This document shows positions 1-6,080 of a stretch of 15,250 nt of DNA, piece by piece. The translations under genes and the position numbers were made by a program. The first letter of the stretch is position 1. Each line of letters begins with the position of its first letter. Under the pieces are notes generated by a model that made no database searches, was not told the DNA's origin, and saw nothing but the letters and a program-made list of their open reading frames with translations. Source of the stretch: a virus; UHGV virus genome UHGV-1735045; one strand, given 5' to 3'.

Positions 1-918
1 AGATAATGCAGCCGCTGTTTTTGAACCTGCCGCAGCTGAGGCGCTCTGTCCCGCTGCTGTTTCAGAAGACCTGGCGTTCGTCTCGGACGTTTTTGCCGCC
101 TTCGCGGAATTTCCTGCCGCCGTTGCCGAGGAAGCTGCACTACTGGCACTTGATGATGCATTCGTTTCTGAAGATTTCGCTGCCTCTTTTGAGGCCGCCG
201 CACCCCGTGCCGAGGTGGCAGCTTCTGACGCCTTCGTGGTCGCTGTGGATGCAGAAGTGGCTGCCGATTTTTGTGATGCTGCGGCATTCGTTTCTGACGT
301 TTTCGCGGCACTGGCGCTGGTAGCTGCCGCGCTTTTTGATGACTCTGCAGCAGCAGCACTTTTTGCTGCTTCACGGGCCTTTGTCGATGCCGTTCCTGCG
401 CTGGAAGACGCTGACTGAGCCGACGACGCGGCCTGTCCGGCTGACGTGCTGGCGGCACGTGCTGAGGCTGCAGCATCGGTTGCATGAGTTGCCGCCTCGC
501 TGGCTGATGCACTGGCATCGCTGGCTGATTTTTTCGCGGCTGCCGTATTCTGTGCAACCGCGGAGGCGTTACGTGACACCTCTTCCACCATCTGCTCAAA
601 GCGGCGCAGTGCCTCCGGCATGACATCATCTTCCGTCATGGCACCGAGAAAATCATTCAGCGTACCTGGTCTGGAACCTTCATAGACGGTAATGGTCCCG
701 GCATGTGAAGGCGGAAAACCTTCAACCAGCAGGGTGACGCTGTACTGACCATGCTCAACATCCATGCTGTAACGTCCGGCTTCATCCGGATTTTCAGAAG
801 CCACCGTGTTCACCAGTACCGTGGTGCTGTTACGCTTTGCCTTCAGTTGAATAGTGCAGTTCTGTATTGGTTTTCCCGCACCATCTTTCAGCACACCTGA
901 GATTTTTACTGCTGCCAT
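1..918 (-). CDS. stf: Side tail fibre protein Stf, N-terminal 306 codons (partial; gene continues beyond window start)
   Basis: Minus-strand frame is open from ATG at 918-916 to position 1. Translation begins MAAVKISGVLKDGAGKPIQNCTIQLKAKRNSTTV..., which I recognise as the lambda Stf (orf-401) N-terminus, followed by an Ala/Ser-rich low-complexity region. It is absent from the ORF track because it runs off the window edge. Confidence 0.85.
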   Translation of the reverse strand, partial: MAAVKISGVLKDGAGKPIQNCTIQLKAKRNSTTVLVNTVASENPDEAGRYSMDVEHGQYSVTLLVEGFPPSHAGTITVYEGSRPGTLNDFLGAMTEDDVMPEALRRFEQMVEEVSRNASAVAQNTAAAKKSASDASASASEAATHATDAAASARAASTSAGQAASSAQSASSSAGTASTKAREAAKSAAAAESSKSAAATSASAAKTSETNAAASQKSAATSASTATTKASEAATSARGAAASKEAAKSSETNASSSASSAASSATAAGNSAKAAKTSETNARSSETAAGQSASAAAGSKTAAALS

Positions 919-929
919 ATCCACTCCAC

Positions 930-956
930 AAAAAAGCCCGCCTGAACCGGCGGGCT
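930..956 (-). terminator. Rho-independent terminator-like hairpin between lom and stf
   Basis: On the minus strand: AGCCCGCC-GGTTCA-GGCGGGCT (8-bp GC-rich stem, 6-nt loop) followed by a U5 run (plus-strand A-tract 930-934). It lies 27 nt downstream of the lom stop. Confidence 0.6.
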
Positions 957-982
957 GTCATAACACTGTGTTACCTGGCTAA

Positions 983-1582
983 TCAGAATTTATAACCGAC
1001 ACCCACGATGAAACCGTCAGTGCGCCAGTCACCACTGCCGGAACCTTCATAAGCAAGGTCAATGGCCACGGATTCGGTCGGGTTAAACTGCACGCCAGCC
1101 CCCCACGCCAGAGACGTGTTGCTGTGGCGACCGTCATCACTTCCGGTCAGCACATCGTGCGTTTTCCCCTTGTTGTCAGTTACGCGGAGATAATCCCCGG
1201 AGAAAGTCGACACACGGCTGTAAGCCACACCCACCATCGCATACGCGCTGAACCATTCATTCACGCGTACAGACGGCCCCGCCATCACGCTGAACCAGCG
1301 GTTACGCACGGAATCTTCATGCCAGCGGGTATCGCTGTAGTGCGTTTTTTGCTCATCCTCAGCATTGGCATAACTGAAGGACGTAATCAGCCCCAGCGCG
1401 TCCGTAAACTCATAACGGTATTTCACGTTAATCCCGTTCAGATTATCGCTGCCGGGAGCGTTCGTACGGGCATGAAGATACCCCGCGCTCAGTGTGGACT
1501 GATGTTCAGACGCCCATGCAGGCGCACCGGATACGGACAGACAGATGGCTGCGGACAAAATGGCTGCACAAACTTTACGCAT
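983..1582 (-). CDS. lom: Lom-family outer membrane beta-barrel protein (Ail/Lom/OmpX/PagC family), 199 aa
   Basis: ORF 983..1582. N-terminal signal peptide MRKVCAAILSAAICLSVSGAPAWA. The C-terminal strand ...DLAYEGSGSGDWRTDGFIVGVGYKF matches the lambda Lom C-terminus as I recall it, ending in the terminal aromatic residue typical of OMP barrels. SD-like GAGAGG lies upstream of the ATG. Position immediately downstream of J is as in lambda. Confidence 0.9.
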   Translation of the reverse strand: MRKVCAAILSAAICLSVSGAPAWASEHQSTLSAGYLHARTNAPGSDNLNGINVKYRYEFTDALGLITSFSYANAEDEQKTHYSDTRWHEDSVRNRWFSVMAGPSVRVNEWFSAYAMVGVAYSRVSTFSGDYLRVTDNKGKTHDVLTGSDDGRHSNTSLAWGAGVQFNPTESVAIDLAYEGSGSGDWRTDGFIVGVGYKF

Positions 1583-1603
1583 AATTACCTCTCGCTTTTC
1601 TGC

Positions 1604-1630
1604 AATAAAAAAGGCGCCATTTCTGGCGCC
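1604..1630 (-). terminator. Rho-independent terminator-like hairpin between J and lom
   Basis: On the minus strand: GGCGCC-AGAAAT-GGCGCC (6-bp all-GC stem) followed by TTTTTTATT (plus-strand A6 at 1607-1612). It starts 20 nt after the J stop and ends 22 nt before the lom ATG. Confidence 0.6.
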
Positions 1631-1649
1631 CGTATTGGGGTTATAAAAT

Positions 1650-4600
1650 TCAGCTAATCGTGATGCCTGCAGTGGCTTTCTTCATCACAACAACCAGCAA
1701 ATCGCTGATACTTGCTGTGGGATACCAGCCATTTACCCACCATGCTGATACAGAAAACTCCAGCGTCATGTGGCCGCGACCAGCAGGCATATCAATAACA
1801 CCACTGTAAATCAGCGTATTATCCAGCGCGGTACGGTTATAAATTTCAGCACCGTTTTTCCGTACTATCAGGCGGCATGACGAATAAGTATCGCTGTTCT
1901 CCCGCTCATGTCTGGCACCGCTGAAAGCCACCGCCGGAATAACAATCTGCCGGTTAAACGGCTGATCGTCATAAACCCTGACGGTAATGGTTCCTGATGG
2001 CCAACGCTCCGGTGCACGGGAGTCACGGGGGAAAGCCTTACCCACTGTTTTAACGAGATCGCCTTCAATCTGGTTTGCAGACAGTTTCCCTCTGATGACA
2101 CAGTTCTCGTTAATGGTGACATTATTGAGCGTGCCGGTATTCGCCGTGATGGCTCCACTGATATCCGCATTGCGGGCTGTCAGCCTGCCATCCGGCGTCA
2201 GGGAAAACGTCGGAGGATTGCCGGATGACGTGATGCTCACCGCAAACAGTCGCTTCAGGAACACGTCGTTCATGAACAGCTGATTCCCCTGCGCCACAAA
2301 CAGCGGCGTGGTGTTGCCGTTCTCCGGGGTAATCATCGCAATGCGATCGGCCTGCAGCAGAATGTTACTCAGGGTCTGACCATCAACATCCTCAATCCCC
2401 GCGCCAATCCCGGCCACATAGGGAATACCGTTTTTTGTTTTCTGCACCTTCAGCATATACATGGCATTCAGCTCATTGCGCGTGTCTGACTGAACCCGCT
2501 GGATTTGCTGTATGGTCACGGCCTGGTCACCCAGCTTTTTATCCGTGGTCGAGGTAATTTCACTCCCTTTTTTATCCACGTACTGGCGGACCTGTGCTAT
2601 CTGTCGGGCGTTTTCTGACTGCCCCTGGCTGACAGTCTGTGAGATTTCACTGCTCACCCGGTCCACTTTCTGGCTCACCTGCGCGATGGCCAGTGTCTGG
2701 TCCTCATTCTTTTTCGCAACCAGCTGCGTGAGGCTGTTTTCCGCCTTCCCGATTTTCCGGGTCACTTCTGCGATATCCGTGTCCATCCGCTGACGGATAT
2801 CTTCTTCCAGTTGCGTGACCTCCGTACGCAGCGCTGAAGCATCAATGCGCTCTTTCAGTGCCTGCCCCAGAAGCGTCTCATCTATCAGCCCCCGGAAAAT
2901 TTCCAGATACCCTTCACCATCATTGCTGGGCTGCCCGCTGGCTTCCACAAAAGCAGATTTTCCCACCAGGTTGACGCTTCGCACGTAAAACCAGAAATCC
3001 GTCCCCGGCTTAATCCGGCTCCCCTGGACAGTCCACTGACTGCCGGTCCCCAGATAACGGGCAGATTTTTCCACCTGTGCTGTGTTCGTGATGCGTTTTT
3101 CCGAAAACCAGAACTCAAACTGCACCGTCGGGTCATACACCGCAAGACGCGGGACCGCCGTTATCTGAAAATACCCCGGCGTCAGCTCAATGGTGGCGGG
3201 TTTTGCAGGTGCGTTAATCCGGAACGATACCGACGCCGGATCGCCCTGCTGTCCCCGGGCATTTACCGCCCGGACCGTCAGCGTGTAACGCCCCAGCGCC
3301 AGCTGCCTGAAGCGGTAAGTGGTTTCCGCCGTCCGGGCCGTGCTGACCAGCCGCTCACTGCCGTCATCCGCTGTTACGGTCAGACGGAGCAGGAAGCTCA
3401 CGCCCTTCACCACCTTCGGCGTGTCCCAGCGCGCCAGCACCTGATATTCCCCGCTGTCTGCGGTGACTTCGGCGGTCAGGTGCTGCACCGCTGGCGGCGT
3501 GACACCATTCACCGTGCCACTCTGTTCGCCGTCAAAGTGCGCCCCGTTATCCACGATGGCCTCTTTTTCCGGTACATGCTGCACGGCGGTGATGGCATAC
3601 GTGCCGTCGTCATTCTCACGGATACTCACGCAGCGGAACAGGCGCTGGCGCAGCGTCGGCAGCTTAAGCCCCCACACGCTGTATTCAGCAACACCGTCAG
3701 GAACACGGCTCACTTTTACCTTCACGCCGTCGGTGACGGACTGAACCTCCACGCTGACCGGACTCCCCTGCCCGTCAACCAGGCTTATCAGCGTGGTGCC
3801 GGAGGATGGCAGCGTGATTTCACGGTCGAGCGTCAGCGTCCGGGTCTGGCTGTTCACCGCCAGCACGCGCCCGCCGGTGCTGATACCCGCATAGTCATCA
3901 TCGCAGATTTCAATGACATCCCCCGGTACATGGCGAAGCCCTTCCGCACCCACGCTGAAGTCCACGGTCTGCGTTTCCAGCAGTTCCGTTTTAATCAGCC
4001 ACAGCCCGGCGCGGTGCGCCTGCCCCCGGCTGGTACAGCCAAAGGCATCCATCTTCGTGACGTTACGACCGTAACGGGCAATGGCCTGCGTATCTTCAAC
4101 AAGCTCTGTCGCCGTCTCCCAGCCGTTGTTCGGGTCAATCCAGTTCACCTCAACGGCATTATGGCGGTCCTTCAGGGCGCTGAAGCTGTAGCGGAACGGC
4201 GCGCCATCATCCGGCATCACCACATTACTGCGGTTATAGGTCCACACCTTATCTGATGGTCGGTCCTGCACGAACGTCAGCGTCTGCCCGTTCCATACCG
4301 GCATACAGCGCATCGCCGAGCAGAAATCACTGAGAACATCCCACGCCTTACGCTGTGTGGTCAGCCAGGCATTACAGGTGATGCGCGGCTCCGTGCCGCC
4401 AAAGCCGTCCGGCACTGACTGGTCGCAGTACTGGCCGATGACATACAGCGCCCATTTATCCACATCCGCCGCACCAAGACGTTTCCCCATGCCGTAGCGC
4501 GGATGGGTCAGCATATCCCACAGACACCAGGCCATGTTGTTGCTGTATGCTGGCTTAAACGTTCCGTCCCAGATACCGCTGTATTGCCGCGTCTGCGGGT

Positions 4601-5348
4601 TATAGTTCGACGGCACCTGCAGAATGCGCCCGCGAAGATGATAATTACGGCTCACCTGCTGGCTGCCGAACTGCTCCGAGTCCACCTGTACGCCGACCAG
4701 TGCCGTGTTCGGGTAGCACTGTTTCACATCGATGATTTCTGTGTATGACGACCAGAGCGTTTTGTTCTGCAGCTGGTCTGTGGTGCTGTCCGGCGTCATC
4801 CTGCGCATCCGGATATTAAACGGGCGCGGCGGCAGGTTATCCACCACCACCGAGGCCAGATACTGCGACGTGGTTTTGCCCTTAATGGTGATGTCTTTTT
4901 CCGTCACCCAGCCACCGTTACGCTGTATCTGAACCAGCAGACGGACTTCCGACGGATTCCTGTCACCCTTTGAGGTGGTTTCCACCAGTGCCTGCACACC
5001 GAAGGTAAAGCGCAGACGGTCGATGTTTGCCGACGTGATGGTCCGGGTAATCGGCGTGTCGTACTTCACTTCCGTACCCAGCACCGTCTCGGAGCCGGAG
5101 GATTCAAACCCCTCCGGCGGTGTCTGCTCCTGCTCACCGGCACGGAACACCACCGTGACACCGGAGATGTTGGTATTCCCCTCAGTGTCCAGCACCGGCG
5201 TATTGTTCAGCAGCACGCTTTTTAATCCATCCACCGGACCTTCAACCGGCCCTTCGCTGATGGCATCGATCACACTCAGCAGCTGCGTGGACTTCAGGTT
5301 GTCCTTCGCTTCGCGCGGGGTATGCCCCTTACTGCTTCCTTTACCCAT
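1650..5348 (-). CDS. J: Central tail fibre / tail tip host-specificity protein J, 1232 aa, with extended coiled-coil segment and divergent C-terminal receptor-binding region
   Basis: ORF 1650..5348. The first ~800 residues ([34 protein letters not shown]...) are near-identical to lambda J as I recall it. The conserved motifs YVAGIG and [18 protein letters not shown] are present. The C-terminal ~170 aa differ from lambda. SD GAGGA lies upstream of the ATG. Confidence 0.95.
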
Positions 5349-5370
5349 TCCTCACGCTCCATAAATGACA

Positions 5371-5390
5371 AAACCGCCCGCAGGCGGTTT
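5371..5390 (-). other. Intergenic RNA hairpin between I and J (weak terminator-like)
   Basis: On the minus strand: AAACCGCC-TGCG-GGCGGTTT, then TGTCATTTATGG, leading into the J SD and ATG. Sits in the 60-nt I-J gap. Confidence 0.35.
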
Positions 5391-5408
5391 CACATAAAAC
5401 ATTTTGCA

Positions 5409-6080
5409 TCAGCGACCAATCACCACAACCTGACCACCGTCCCCTTCGTCTGCCGTGCTGATCTCCTGAGAAACCACGCGTGACCCCACGCGCATTTCCC
5501 CGTACAGAACGGGCAGAACATTGCCCTGGGCAACCATGTTATCCAGTGAAGAAAAATAGGTGTTCTGTTTGCCGTTATCCGTTGTCTGTGTGCGGGGGAT
5601 TTTGGGTTTAGGGGCCAGCATCTGCGCCACACCACCGAGCACCATACTGGCACCAAGAGAAAACAGGATGCCGGTCATACCACCGGCCCCAATGGCTGCC
5701 CCCCATGCTGCAAGGGTGGCTCCGGCAGTAAAGAATGATCCGGCAATGGCGGCAGCTCCCAGGACAATCTGGAATACGCCACCTGACTTGGCCCCGGCGA
5801 CTCTGGGAACAATATGAATCACAGCGCCATCAGGCAGAGTCTCATGTAACTGCGCCGTTAATCCGGACGTGCTGACATCCCGCCCGGCAATCCGTACCTG
5901 ATACCAGCCGTCGCTCAGCTTCTGACGAAACGCCGGGAGCTGTGTGGCCAGCGCCCGGATGGCTTCGGCCCCCGTTTTCACACGAAGGTCGATGCGGCGG
6001 CCAAATCGTTGTAAATCCCCGTAAAGGCAGATGCGTGCCATGCCCGGTGACGCCAGAGGGAGTGTGTGCGTCGCTGCCAT
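5409..6080 (-). CDS. I: Tail tip assembly protein I, 223 aa
   Basis: ORF 5409..6080. Sequence MAATHTLPLASPGMARICLYGDLQRFGRR... matches lambda gpI. The 672-nt length and 103-nt overlap with the K 3' end are exactly as in lambda. Confidence 0.93.
   Translation of the reverse strand: MAATHTLPLASPGMARICLYGDLQRFGRRIDLRVKTGAEAIRALATQLPAFRQKLSDGWYQVRIAGRDVSTSGLTAQLHETLPDGAVIHIVPRVAGAKSGGVFQIVLGAAAIAGSFFTAGATLAAWGAAIGAGGMTGILFSLGASMVLGGVAQMLAPKPKIPRTQTTDNGKQNTYFSSLDNMVAQGNVLPVLYGEMRVGSRVVSQEISTADEGDGGQVVVIGR

Follow-up and report, generated by a model that had tools for sequence, protein, structure and literature searches.

Llp of phage T5 acts on FhuA, and Cor of phages phi80 and N15 is a phage-encoded receptor-blocking protein. 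Both are small lipoproteins, whereas the Lom protein of phage lambda is an integral beta-barrel; the logic proposed to be common to all three is that a phage envelope protein would inactivate the phage's own receptor. Lambda lom is a textbook example of a moron (PMC3594210), and it is expressed in lysogens (PMC7067206; PMC12366544) and strongly late in infection (PMC12366544). For a phi24B orthologue, expression has been seen both in lysogens and after induction (PMC3342100). When lambda Lom is over-expressed, it gives protection from lambda-vir, not from T7, and the Lom levels found in lysogens do not block lambda-vir (PMC12366544). Lambda Lom (NP_040601, 206 aa) is chain C of PDB entry 9wso, which also contains the maltoporin LamB; lambda J was considered as the Lom partner in that entry, and is not in it. 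The morons of HK97 and HK022 (Juhala et al. 2000; reviewed in PMC3594210) provide a second point of reference, in that they too are accessory non-structural genes in a late or tail operon and carry their own terminator.

The window, i.e., the whole 15,250-nucleotide stretch of virus genome UHGV-1735045 that was analysed, belongs to a lambda-like prophage and contains a lom gene flanked by J, which encodes the tail tip, and stf, the gene for the side tail fibre (Table 1). A preliminary description had already recognized the feature, which is confirmed here, with its strand set right to minus. The whole is very probably explained as the ordinary and most widespread lom allele (the 199-aa type) at the canonical J-lom-stf site of a lambda-like E. 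coli prophage.

Table 1. Coordinates of the features of the lom locus, in the direction of transcription.
Feature	Position	Strand	Details
J, tail tip gene	1650..5348	minus	1232 aa; Pfam J domains
J-lom terminator	1606..1631	minus	8-bp stem GGGCGCCA/UGGCGCCU, GAAA loop, U6
Leader, U-tract to ATG	1583..1605	minus	23 nt; Shine-Dalgarno GAGAGG at 1593-1588
lom CDS	983..1582	minus	199 aa + stop (open reading frame and translation); predicted precursor of an 8-stranded outer-membrane beta-barrel of the Ail/Lom/OmpX family
Predicted signal peptide	1511..1582	minus	MRKVCAAILSAAICLSVSGAPAWA; codons 1-24; model helix 2-19
Conserved DNA island	1409..1435	minus	GINVKYRYE (strand beta2); 26/27 nt identical to lambda
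Mosaic junction	916..1060	minus	~90-100% DNA identity to lambda (sliding identity, alignment)
Ultra-conserved 3' UTR block	957..982	minus	26 nt, TTAGCCAGGTAACACAGTGTTATGAC; contains palindrome TAACAC-A-GTGTTA
Post-lom terminator	930..956	minus	8-bp stem AGCCCGCC/GGCGGGCU, 6-nt loop, U-tract
stf, 5' part	1..918	minus	prophage tail fibre N-terminal domain; continues past window edge

In 4082 of the 5426 complete E. coli genomes (~75%), a match spanned 80% or more of the query; the median was two copies per genome, the complete genomes together hold ~15,600 copies, and the best match, 99.9% identical, carries the annotation "Ail/Lom family outer membrane beta-barrel protein". The gene also matched 222 phage records, many of them annotated lom; 163 phage records have a protein identity of 80% or more, and there are protein clusters with thousands of members. 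It is therefore the commonest E. coli prophage version of lom, already known and annotated in thousands of genomes, which makes the finding an ordinary one; since most E. coli genomes already have the gene annotated, it adds little by itself. The earlier label of "lom variant" is misleading, because the 199-aa type predominates and lambda's own Lom is the rarer type. The Lom proteins of VT1-Sakai (BAB19561), JLK-2012, cdtI, CP-1639 and mEp460 belong to the same allele family, with 87-98% protein identity. Loci of this kind in E. coli prophages and Stx phages have the same spacers, terminators and gene order as the window, and their Lom proteins differ allelically only, i.e., in the signal peptide, loop L1 and the first half of L2, each of which occurs in a few interchangeable versions.

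Assignment to the Lom/Ail family, as originally proposed, is borne out by agreement between the Pfam profile, sequence matches in the PDB and Foldseek. The protein scored 419.9 bits against Pfam PF06316 (Ail_Lom; cut-off 23) and covered positions 1-199 of the 199-position profile, while its sequence matches in the PDB included lambda Lom (9wso_C, 3e-49), OmpX (4e-20) and Ail (2e-19). The AlphaFold2 model has eight main strands, and its best Foldseek matches were Ail (3qrc) and OmpX (1qj9); as confidence in the model was moderate (mean pLDDT 71.7, with L1 below 50), the strand and loop borders used below are approximate. The full-length profile match is thus accompanied by an 8-strand barrel that resembles the solved Ail, OmpX and Lom structures. 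Signals for export and for insertion by BAM appear to be present, namely a hydrophobic N-terminus ending in AWA, after which cleavage would be expected from the A-x-A rule, and a C-terminus (GVGYKF) with a final Phe. By sequence and model, lom encodes a predicted secreted, 8-stranded outer-membrane beta-barrel with long extracellular hairpins.

Ail of Yersinia, OmpX of E. coli and PagC and Rck of Salmonella are likewise 8-stranded barrels with protruding hairpins. Lom is related to them at E-values of ~1e-19 to 1e-20 and target-normalized TM-scores of 0.73-0.80, with ~30-35% identity; it differs from them in being phage-borne, in its much longer L2 and L3 hairpins, and in an invariant L4 motif, EGSGSGDWRTD, that is Lom-specific. 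Orthology to the Rck/PagC-like proteins or to OmpX was considered and rejected, because the protein falls below the cut-offs of both NCBIfam equivalogs (113 vs 258 bits and 103 vs 176 bits, respectively).

Lambda Lom shares the J-lom-stf position, the family and the 8-strand barrel with the protein encoded here, which is shorter, as had been noted, at 199 aa against 206; loop L1 is eight residues shorter than in lambda. The two proteins are 43% identical (89/207, with nine gap positions), far from the near-identity that would have spoken against a divergent allele. Substitutions were enriched extracellularly rather than evenly spread: identity was 28% in the extracellular parts but 60% over the strands and turns (Fisher p = 3e-5). 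Several details of the preliminary description needed adjustment. The divergence it placed at residues ~25-140 is real and extends to about residue 172; the signal peptide it took to be kept is present, but matches lambda at only 11 of 24 residues; and the C-terminal block it called identical is near-identical, at 24/25 rather than 25/25 residues, with DLAYEG here where lambda has DIAYEG.

The nature of this C-terminal match became apparent at the DNA level. The mosaic junction takes in lom codons ~175-199 with the stop, continues across the 3' UTR and the terminator to the start of stf, and includes an exact run of 54 nt with lambda (1000-947). The near-identical C-terminus is thus more than a conserved beta-strand: it is a DNA-level junction shared with lambda. 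Upstream, the first 830 residues of J are ~97% identical to those of lambda J; ~100 additional residues follow, and the C-terminal end of J is only ~45% identical, so that the neighbouring receptor-binding end of J also differs between the two loci. Compared with lambda, the receptor-binding end of J (roughly 1650-2100) together with lom codons 1-175 is one exchanged mosaic block, which ends at the DNA junction described above. Within the block, the conserved DNA island is surrounded by highly diverged sequence and is the crossover point in the chimeric Lom proteins P0098, P0100 and P0106. The J stop codon is followed by an in-frame TAA.

The locus had been described as bracketed by two intrinsic terminators, and both proved canonical and stable in a consensus scan and in the suggested free-energy calculation. 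The J-lom terminator (stem 1631-1612, T-run 1611-1606) had a minimum free energy of -16.5 kcal/mol in a 41-nt window (z = -3.3), with one of 200 shuffles as stable. Its stem also covaries: among 22 distinct versions of the intergenic sequence, pairing holds in 98.3% of cells and three of the eight pairs have changed on both sides, a covariation score reached by none of 500 shuffles, while slid registers were only 36-61% paired. The exchanges (G-C/A-U, C-G/U-A and A-U/U-A) pass through G-U intermediates that fit RNA of the lom strand. The post-lom terminator (stem 956-935, with seven G-C pairs of eight; T-run 934-930) had a minimum free energy of -18.6 kcal/mol (z = -3.1) and ends 11 nt before the stf ATG; it is too invariant for covariation analysis. 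In lambda, too, a hairpin with T-run separates J from lom, and the terminator after lom is the same apart from a changed loop and a G-U pair. The 8-bp J-lom hairpin of the window is stronger than that of lambda and different in sequence, the most stable hairpin in the lambda spacer having only 5 bp (centroid -8.1 kcal/mol). Their form and stability, with covariation in the case of the upstream one, make a convincing case that both hairpins are genuine Rho-independent terminators on the lom strand, each directly before the ribosome-binding site of the next gene.

The gap between the upstream terminator and the lom ATG, first given as ~21 nt, is 23 nt (1605-1583), nearly invariant among loci of the 199-aa type. 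As previously argued, this leaves no space for a dedicated promoter; the gap also includes the Shine-Dalgarno sequence. No sigma-70 consensus promoter was found on the lom strand in window positions 1-6000; under relaxed criteria, the 700 nt before lom gave two weak 8/12 matches only, 300-540 nt upstream, and a literature search for a lom promoter or transcription start returned none. With no room for a promoter and none found, the best inference is that lom would be expressed by read-through of a late, antiterminated transcript. Polymerase modified by Q is expected to ignore intrinsic terminators. During lytic growth, lom would then be made from the long late transcript, with the modified polymerase passing both hairpins. 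In a lysogen the terminators would insulate lom, such that stray transcription of the tail genes would be halted before lom, and lom transcripts before stf; any expression in the prophage state would consequently have to come from a weak start that lies before the first hairpin or overlaps it. Such expression is assumed for this allele from the behaviour of lambda and phi24B. The moron-like architecture ascribed to the locus holds for the downstream terminator, but not for an own promoter or a deviant base composition. GC content was 55.3% in lom, 57.4% in J, 56.6% in the stf part and 56.7% in the window, and a GC-island test for horizontal insertion of lom was negative. Unlike the HK97 and HK022 morons, this lom thus has a terminator where a promoter would be expected and no GC deviation, so the term "moron" is only partly earned. 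The comparison loci had all been chosen for carrying lom.

Two other readings of the spacers were weighed against insulation and read-through. It is highly unlikely that lom is an autonomous moron whose promoter lies in or overlaps the 67-nt J-lom spacer, with the hairpin serving as a 5' leader or attenuator. The expression of lambda lom in lysogens (PMC7067206; PMC12366544) would suit such a promoter, the spacer from J stop to lom ATG is preserved as a whole after at least five distinct J ends, and TATAAC at 1645-1640 is a candidate -10 element. However, this hexamer has neither the conserved final T nor a -35 partner, no -35/-10 pair in the spacer passed even the lax 8/12 criterion, the lambda spacer is not alignable at its position, and a transcript starting from it would run directly into the terminator. 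It is also improbable that the hairpins serve mainly to stabilize RNA 3' or 5' ends, to govern by processing how much J, lom and stf message the long late transcript yields relative to one another, or to mark conserved boundaries of recombination modules, rather than to insulate a prophage-expressed gene. The upstream stem has been kept by compensatory changes even though Q-modified polymerase would be expected to ignore it, each hairpin sits at a gene boundary beside invariant blocks in which mosaic junctions fall, and the 26 nt ahead of the second hairpin are ~20-fold less diverse than synonymous sites. Against this, both hairpins have the full canonical terminator form, a G+C-rich stem with a U-run directly behind it, and only on the lom strand, a form that neither a stabilizer nor a recombination linker needs; moreover, insulation and these other roles are not mutually exclusive.

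The concentration of differences in extracellular loops had been taken to suggest diversifying selection, which the substitution rates do not support. Among seven 199-type genes, dS reached 0.85 for L1 and 0.46 for L2 but was 0.06-0.10 elsewhere. The dN/dS ratio, estimated from these seven sequences with recombination ignored, was 0.22-0.26 in every loop and 0.15 in the strands, and exceeded 1 in no segment. That dS is so high where the gene varies, at a dN/dS of 0.2-0.25, points to old pieces of alleles that recombination has exchanged. What separates this protein from lambda Lom therefore probably reflects old lineages reshuffled at conserved islands, rather than recent loop-directed positive selection.

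By analogy with lambda Lom, the protein would most likely act at the cell surface and may mask a phage receptor; masking would limit adsorption of sibling or superinfecting phage, and adhesion or serum resistance would be a side or alternative role. Receptor masking is documented, by over-expression, for lambda Lom only, and at 43% identity it is suggested for the present allele by analogy. No PADLOC defence model matched the lom protein. An alternative is that Lom is a host-interaction factor (an adhesin or serum-resistance protein) expressed from the prophage, whose loops have been diversified by the animal host or by predators for which Lom is a receptor. Membership of the Ail/PagC/OmpX family suits this reading, as does the tie between lambda Lom and adhesion attributed to Vica Pacheco 1997 where that work is cited (PMC12366544; PMC3594210). 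Extracellular conservation is indeed lower, both against lambda and within the family (mean column entropy 0.51 in extracellular parts vs 0.29 in strands and turns, p = 0.014), and the persistence of several deeply diverged L1 and L2 alleles would fit balancing selection. Reduced loop conservation is, however, the default of any beta-barrel protein, and the loop dN/dS values argue against diversifying selection. So does the distribution of variation, as L3, the longest loop, hardly varies within the type (dS 0.056, dN 0.015) and L4 is invariant, while the unexposed signal peptide is the most variable segment after L1 (mean entropy within the family 0.86). This host-factor reading with diversified loops is therefore unlikely.

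A further reading, possible though somewhat doubtful, is that Lom alleles are matched to the adjacent J receptor-binding end, each masking the receptor of its own phage as lambda Lom would mask LamB. Tentatively, the exposed L2 (and L3) hairpins might then co-evolve with the adjacent J end, with the 199-aa allele covering a receptor other than LamB; the divergent hairpins, L2 (residues 73-82) in particular, could perhaps be adapted to the receptor of the J-end type found in the window. The presence of LamB with lambda Lom in 9wso and the lambda-specific protection (PMC12366544) are consistent with matching, as is the fact that the block replaced relative to lambda takes in both this end of J and lom codons 1-175. 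Among 235 loci, all ten of the 206-aa type had the lambda-type J end (R3), and all 20 of the 207-aa type had J-end type R2; the ten lambda-type loci count as a single observation, however, because all are 99-100% identical to lambda Lom. Across 161 unique 199-type haplotypes, J-end type was strongly associated with L2 allele (Cramer's V 0.66; null 0.15), and weakly with the types of signal peptide (V 0.24) and L1 (V 0.37), both of which lie between J and L2. Against matching, the same L1 and L2 alleles were found with four or five J-end types (the GDKNRQ-type L2 with R0, the type of the window, R1, the type of cdtI, and R2, R4 and R5), L2 was also associated with the downstream start of stf (V 0.46), and the IMG/VR loci are phylogenetically non-independent. 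Neutral, small gene-conversion patches among lom copies could yield the same non-monotonic pattern of association, because the signal-peptide/L1 cassette lies between two invariant blocks and genomes carry several lom copies. Strict one-to-one pairing of 199-type Lom with a single J end was rejected, as five J-end types carry this Lom. Were Lom alleles nevertheless tuned to J receptor specificity, the J-lom pair would constitute a two-gene module for host range and self-exclusion, Lom sequence could help to predict phage receptors, and the long-unclear role of a 45-year-old lambda gene would extend to thousands of prophages.

One further element of the ordinary 199-aa-type locus is the 3' UTR between the lom stop codon and the second terminator. 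An Rfam scan of positions 800-1800 on both strands, with E-values up to 10, returned sub-threshold chance matches only. The phi24B sRNA 24B_1, which is encoded "between lom and vb_24B_43" and stated to be absent from lambda (PMC4426718), was rejected as a counterpart, as it lies on the opposite strand and in a short-tailed Stx phage. Among 92 unique haplotypes, nucleotide diversity in the 26-nt block was 0.007, against 0.144-0.174 at adjacent third codon positions, and the same sequence is found in lambda. The block could be an unrecognized regulatory RNA or protein-binding site common to most lambdoid E. coli prophages.

The 199-aa protein encoded by lom matched the Pfam family Ail_Lom (PF06316) over its whole length (1-199 of the 199-position profile, 420 bits), and its sequence matches in the PDB were lambda Lom (9wso, 3e-49), OmpX (4e-20) and Ail (2e-19). 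An AlphaFold model, for which 26 homologues served as input, contained eight long strands and a signal-peptide helix and had Ail and OmpX as its best structural matches; confidence was moderate (pLDDT 71.7) and extracellular loop L1 was poorly defined.

The preliminary description had treated the gene as a lom variant. Near-full-length copies of the 801-nt lom region were found in 4082 of 5426 complete E. coli genomes (median 2 copies per genome, maximum 14), and the top match, 99.9% identical, is labelled "Ail/Lom family outer membrane beta-barrel protein" and has gpJ on one side and a tail fibre gene on the other. DNA-level matches occurred in 222 phage records, including VT1-Sakai, JLK-2012, cdtI and CP-1639, where the gene is labelled lom. 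Protein-level matches in phages formed discrete classes: 163 records were at least 80% identical to the 199-aa Lom, lambda-type proteins (43-44%) and those of short-tailed Stx phages (38-45%) made up the next populated classes, and the range between was almost empty. In a large protein database, clusters of the 199-aa type reach 24,859 member sequences. Because this type dominates phage records, genomes and protein clusters, lambda Lom is the minority form and better deserves the name of variant; the lom of the window is the standard, heavily annotated E. coli prophage allele at its standard site.

Features of the lom locus and its flanks
Feature	Position	Strand	Description
Tail tip gene J	1650..5348	minus	1232 aa; upstream of lom
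Upstream hairpin	stem 1631-1612	lom strand	followed by six T
lom ORF	983..1582	minus	199 aa
Conserved lom 3' UTR block	982-957	minus	26 nt, TTAGCCAGGTAACACAGTGTTATGAC; between lom stop and second hairpin
Downstream hairpin	stem 956-935	lom strand	followed by five T
Side tail fibre gene stf, start	ATG at 918		downstream of lom; prophage tail fibre N-terminal domain

Aligned with the 206-aa lambda Lom, the protein was 43% identical; of the 9 gap positions, eight fall within L1. A conserved signal peptide and an identical C-terminal beta-strand block had been proposed; both are present, but only 11 of 24 signal-peptide residues and 24 of the last 25 residues are shared, and the divergence, placed at residues ~25-140, extends to about residue 172. 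In the nucleotide comparison with lambda, identity was ~40-60% over most of lom and ~90-100% from ~1060 onwards. Lom codons ~175-199 lie in this high-identity stretch, which continues past the stop through the 3' UTR and the terminator into the first stf codons and includes a 54-nt exact run at 1000-947. As this identity runs on into stf, the C-terminal block is one side of a recombination junction. On the other flank, J was ~97% identical to lambda J across its first ~830 residues; beyond them (window 1650-2900, codons ~830-1232) it carries ~100 extra residues, and its receptor-binding end is only ~45% identical to the LamB-binding end of lambda. This end of J and lom codons 1-175 form a single block replaced relative to lambda. 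A second lambda-like island, at 1435-1409, encodes GINVKYRYE (26 of 27 nt identical). Three chimeric 207-aa Loms (P0098, P0100 and P0106), in which the N-terminus and long L1 of the 207-aa type are joined to a 199-type body, switch at exactly this block.

With strand and loop borders set from the AlphaFold model and an OmpX alignment, strands and periplasmic turns were 60% identical to lambda Lom and extracellular parts 28% (Fisher p = 3e-5), or 53% and 19% without the last 25 residues, so that the expected loop bias was borne out. Diversifying selection, which had been offered as its cause, was not. Among proteins of the 199-aa type, variation fell in the signal peptide, in L1 and in the first half of L2; L3 was nearly uniform and L4 (GSGDWRTD) invariant. 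In seven aligned genes of this type, analysed with recombination ignored, the loops had a dN/dS of 0.22-0.26 and the strands one of 0.15, and dS was very high in the variable segments (L1 0.85, L2 0.46, signal peptide 0.44) compared with L3 (0.06) and the C-terminal half (0.10). The variable segments thus look like old, diverged allelic segments swapped by recombination, with the loops being simply less constrained. Weak positive selection could still act at single codons, the sample being small and recombination ignored. Many database Loms, P0037, P0038, P0051 and P0056 among them, are shortened to 183 aa (16 clusters within the top 120 matches) or 185 aa (11 clusters) by in-frame loss of the segment between short direct repeats (WFS...WFS, MAG...MAG). 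These deletions map to window ~1235-1297 (lom codons ~96-116) and remove most of the beta4-turn-beta5 hairpin; such proteins are probably broken barrels of decaying prophages.

The two intrinsic terminators said to bracket lom were both found. Their folding energies were -16.5 kcal/mol upstream and -18.6 kcal/mol downstream, each roughly three standard deviations more stable than shuffled sequence. From the end of the first U-run to the lom ATG there are 23 nt, and from the end of the second hairpin to the stf ATG 11 nt; since each hairpin ends just before the next ATG, the two junctions are built alike. IMG/VR and phage records supplied 235 usable related loci, in which the J-lom spacer occurred in 35 versions; a covariation test used 22 distinct, alignable versions. 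Both sides had changed in three of eight pairs of the upstream stem (G-C/A-U, C-G/U-A, A-U/U-A), 98.3% of cells paired, and the covariation score was reached by none of 500 shuffles; pairing was lost when the register was shifted. The one-step intermediates between these pairs are G-U when read on the lom strand, as expected if the hairpin forms in RNA of that strand. At the corresponding site, lambda and the 207-aa Lom type carry another hairpin, likewise with a T-run behind it. The downstream terminator gave no covariation signal because it is almost invariant; it is kept in lambda, where the loop differs and one pair is G-U. These observations indicate that the terminators are real and maintained in evolution. 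A different lom-stf spacer of 151 nt (TGACAACAGACGCC...) is present in L012, L013, L016 and some 20 further loci; it contains another hairpin and leads to an stf beginning MTVKISG, and thus forms a second type of junction exactly at the lom stop codon.

Morons are recognized by their own promoter, their own terminator, deviant composition and prophage expression (PMC3594210). Only the terminator was found for lom, leaving one defining feature of the suggested moron-like architecture: a promoter scan of window 1-6000 detected no promoter-like site on the lom strand, relaxed criteria applied to the 700 nt upstream yielded just two weak 8/12 matches, at a distance of 300-540 nt, and GC content was 55.3% against 56.7% for the window. 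The proposal of read-through expression fared better, as there is no space for a promoter after the first terminator; the 23 nt that follow it carry the ribosome-binding site, and the scans gave no credible site. Expression would most plausibly come from the Q-antiterminated late transcript, in agreement with the strong late rise of lambda lom reported in PMC12366544 (citing Liu et al. 2013) and PMC9836094. Low expression in the prophage state is reported for lambda lom (PMC7067206) and for a phi24B orthologue (PMC3342100); for the lom of the window it would require a weak start that lies before the first hairpin or overlaps it.

The 3' UTR block, which contains the palindrome TAACAC-A-GTGTTA, is identical in lambda. 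Among 92 unique haplotypes its nucleotide diversity was 0.007, against 0.144-0.174 at neighbouring third codon positions and 0.038 in the hairpin, i.e., ~20-fold below neighbouring synonymous sites. Some constraint beyond termination acts on it. An Rfam scan of the block matched no family, and the 24B_1 RNA of phi24B was ruled out as its identity.

LamB is the lambda receptor. PDB entry 9wso holds lambda Lom together with this maltoporin, J is absent from it, and a literature search found no paper describing the entry; the complex presumably means that lambda Lom adjoins and covers LamB. Classically, Lom has been viewed as an adhesion factor on the model of Ail and PagC (cited in PMC12366544 and PMC3594210). 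The PDB entry points in another direction, and so does a newer experiment: over-expressed lambda Lom gave strong protection from lambda-vir and none from T7, and the authors proposed that non-productive adsorption is prevented (PMC12366544). If Lom masks the receptor of its own phage, Lom type should track J receptor-binding type. When the last 130 residues of J from the 235 loci were clustered into types R0-R5 (R0, window; R3, lambda), the 206-aa Lom was paired solely with R3 (10/10 loci, which count as one observation because they are essentially lambda itself) and the 207-aa Lom solely with R2 (20/20); the 199-aa Lom occurred with R0, R1, R2, R4 and R5.

Among 161 unique 199-type haplotypes, which are not independent samples, Cramer's V with J type was 0.66 for the L2 allele (residues 73-82, NAxDEQ vs GDKNRQ; permutation null 0.15), 0.37 for L1 and 0.24 for signal-peptide type. 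Although closer to J, the signal-peptide and L1 segments, which separate it from L2, thus follow J type less than L2 does; signal-peptide type shows no dependence on L2 (V 0.05). Such a non-monotonic pattern is what co-adaptation of J and Lom would give. Short gene-conversion tracts among lom copies could, however, swap the signal-peptide/L1 cassette neutrally; two invariant blocks flank this cassette and several copies per genome are available as partners. Moreover, L2 is associated with the stf start (V 0.46). That Lom type fits the receptor used by its own J would be a rather unlikely reading. This lead and the 3' UTR block are the sole parts that deserve experiment.

Past its N-terminal domain (window 1-560), stf contains a long repetitive Ala/Ser/Thr-rich stretch, whose composition gives rise to long spurious opposite-strand ORFs (6..323, 215..418 and 336..623). 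One IMG/VR locus, L023 (UViG_2671180353_000009), carries two lom copies 1.5 kb apart (3001-3600 and 4497-5096). A J 3' end and the spacer hairpin stand ahead of each copy; the arrangement reflects either a local duplication or the junction of two prophage remnants.
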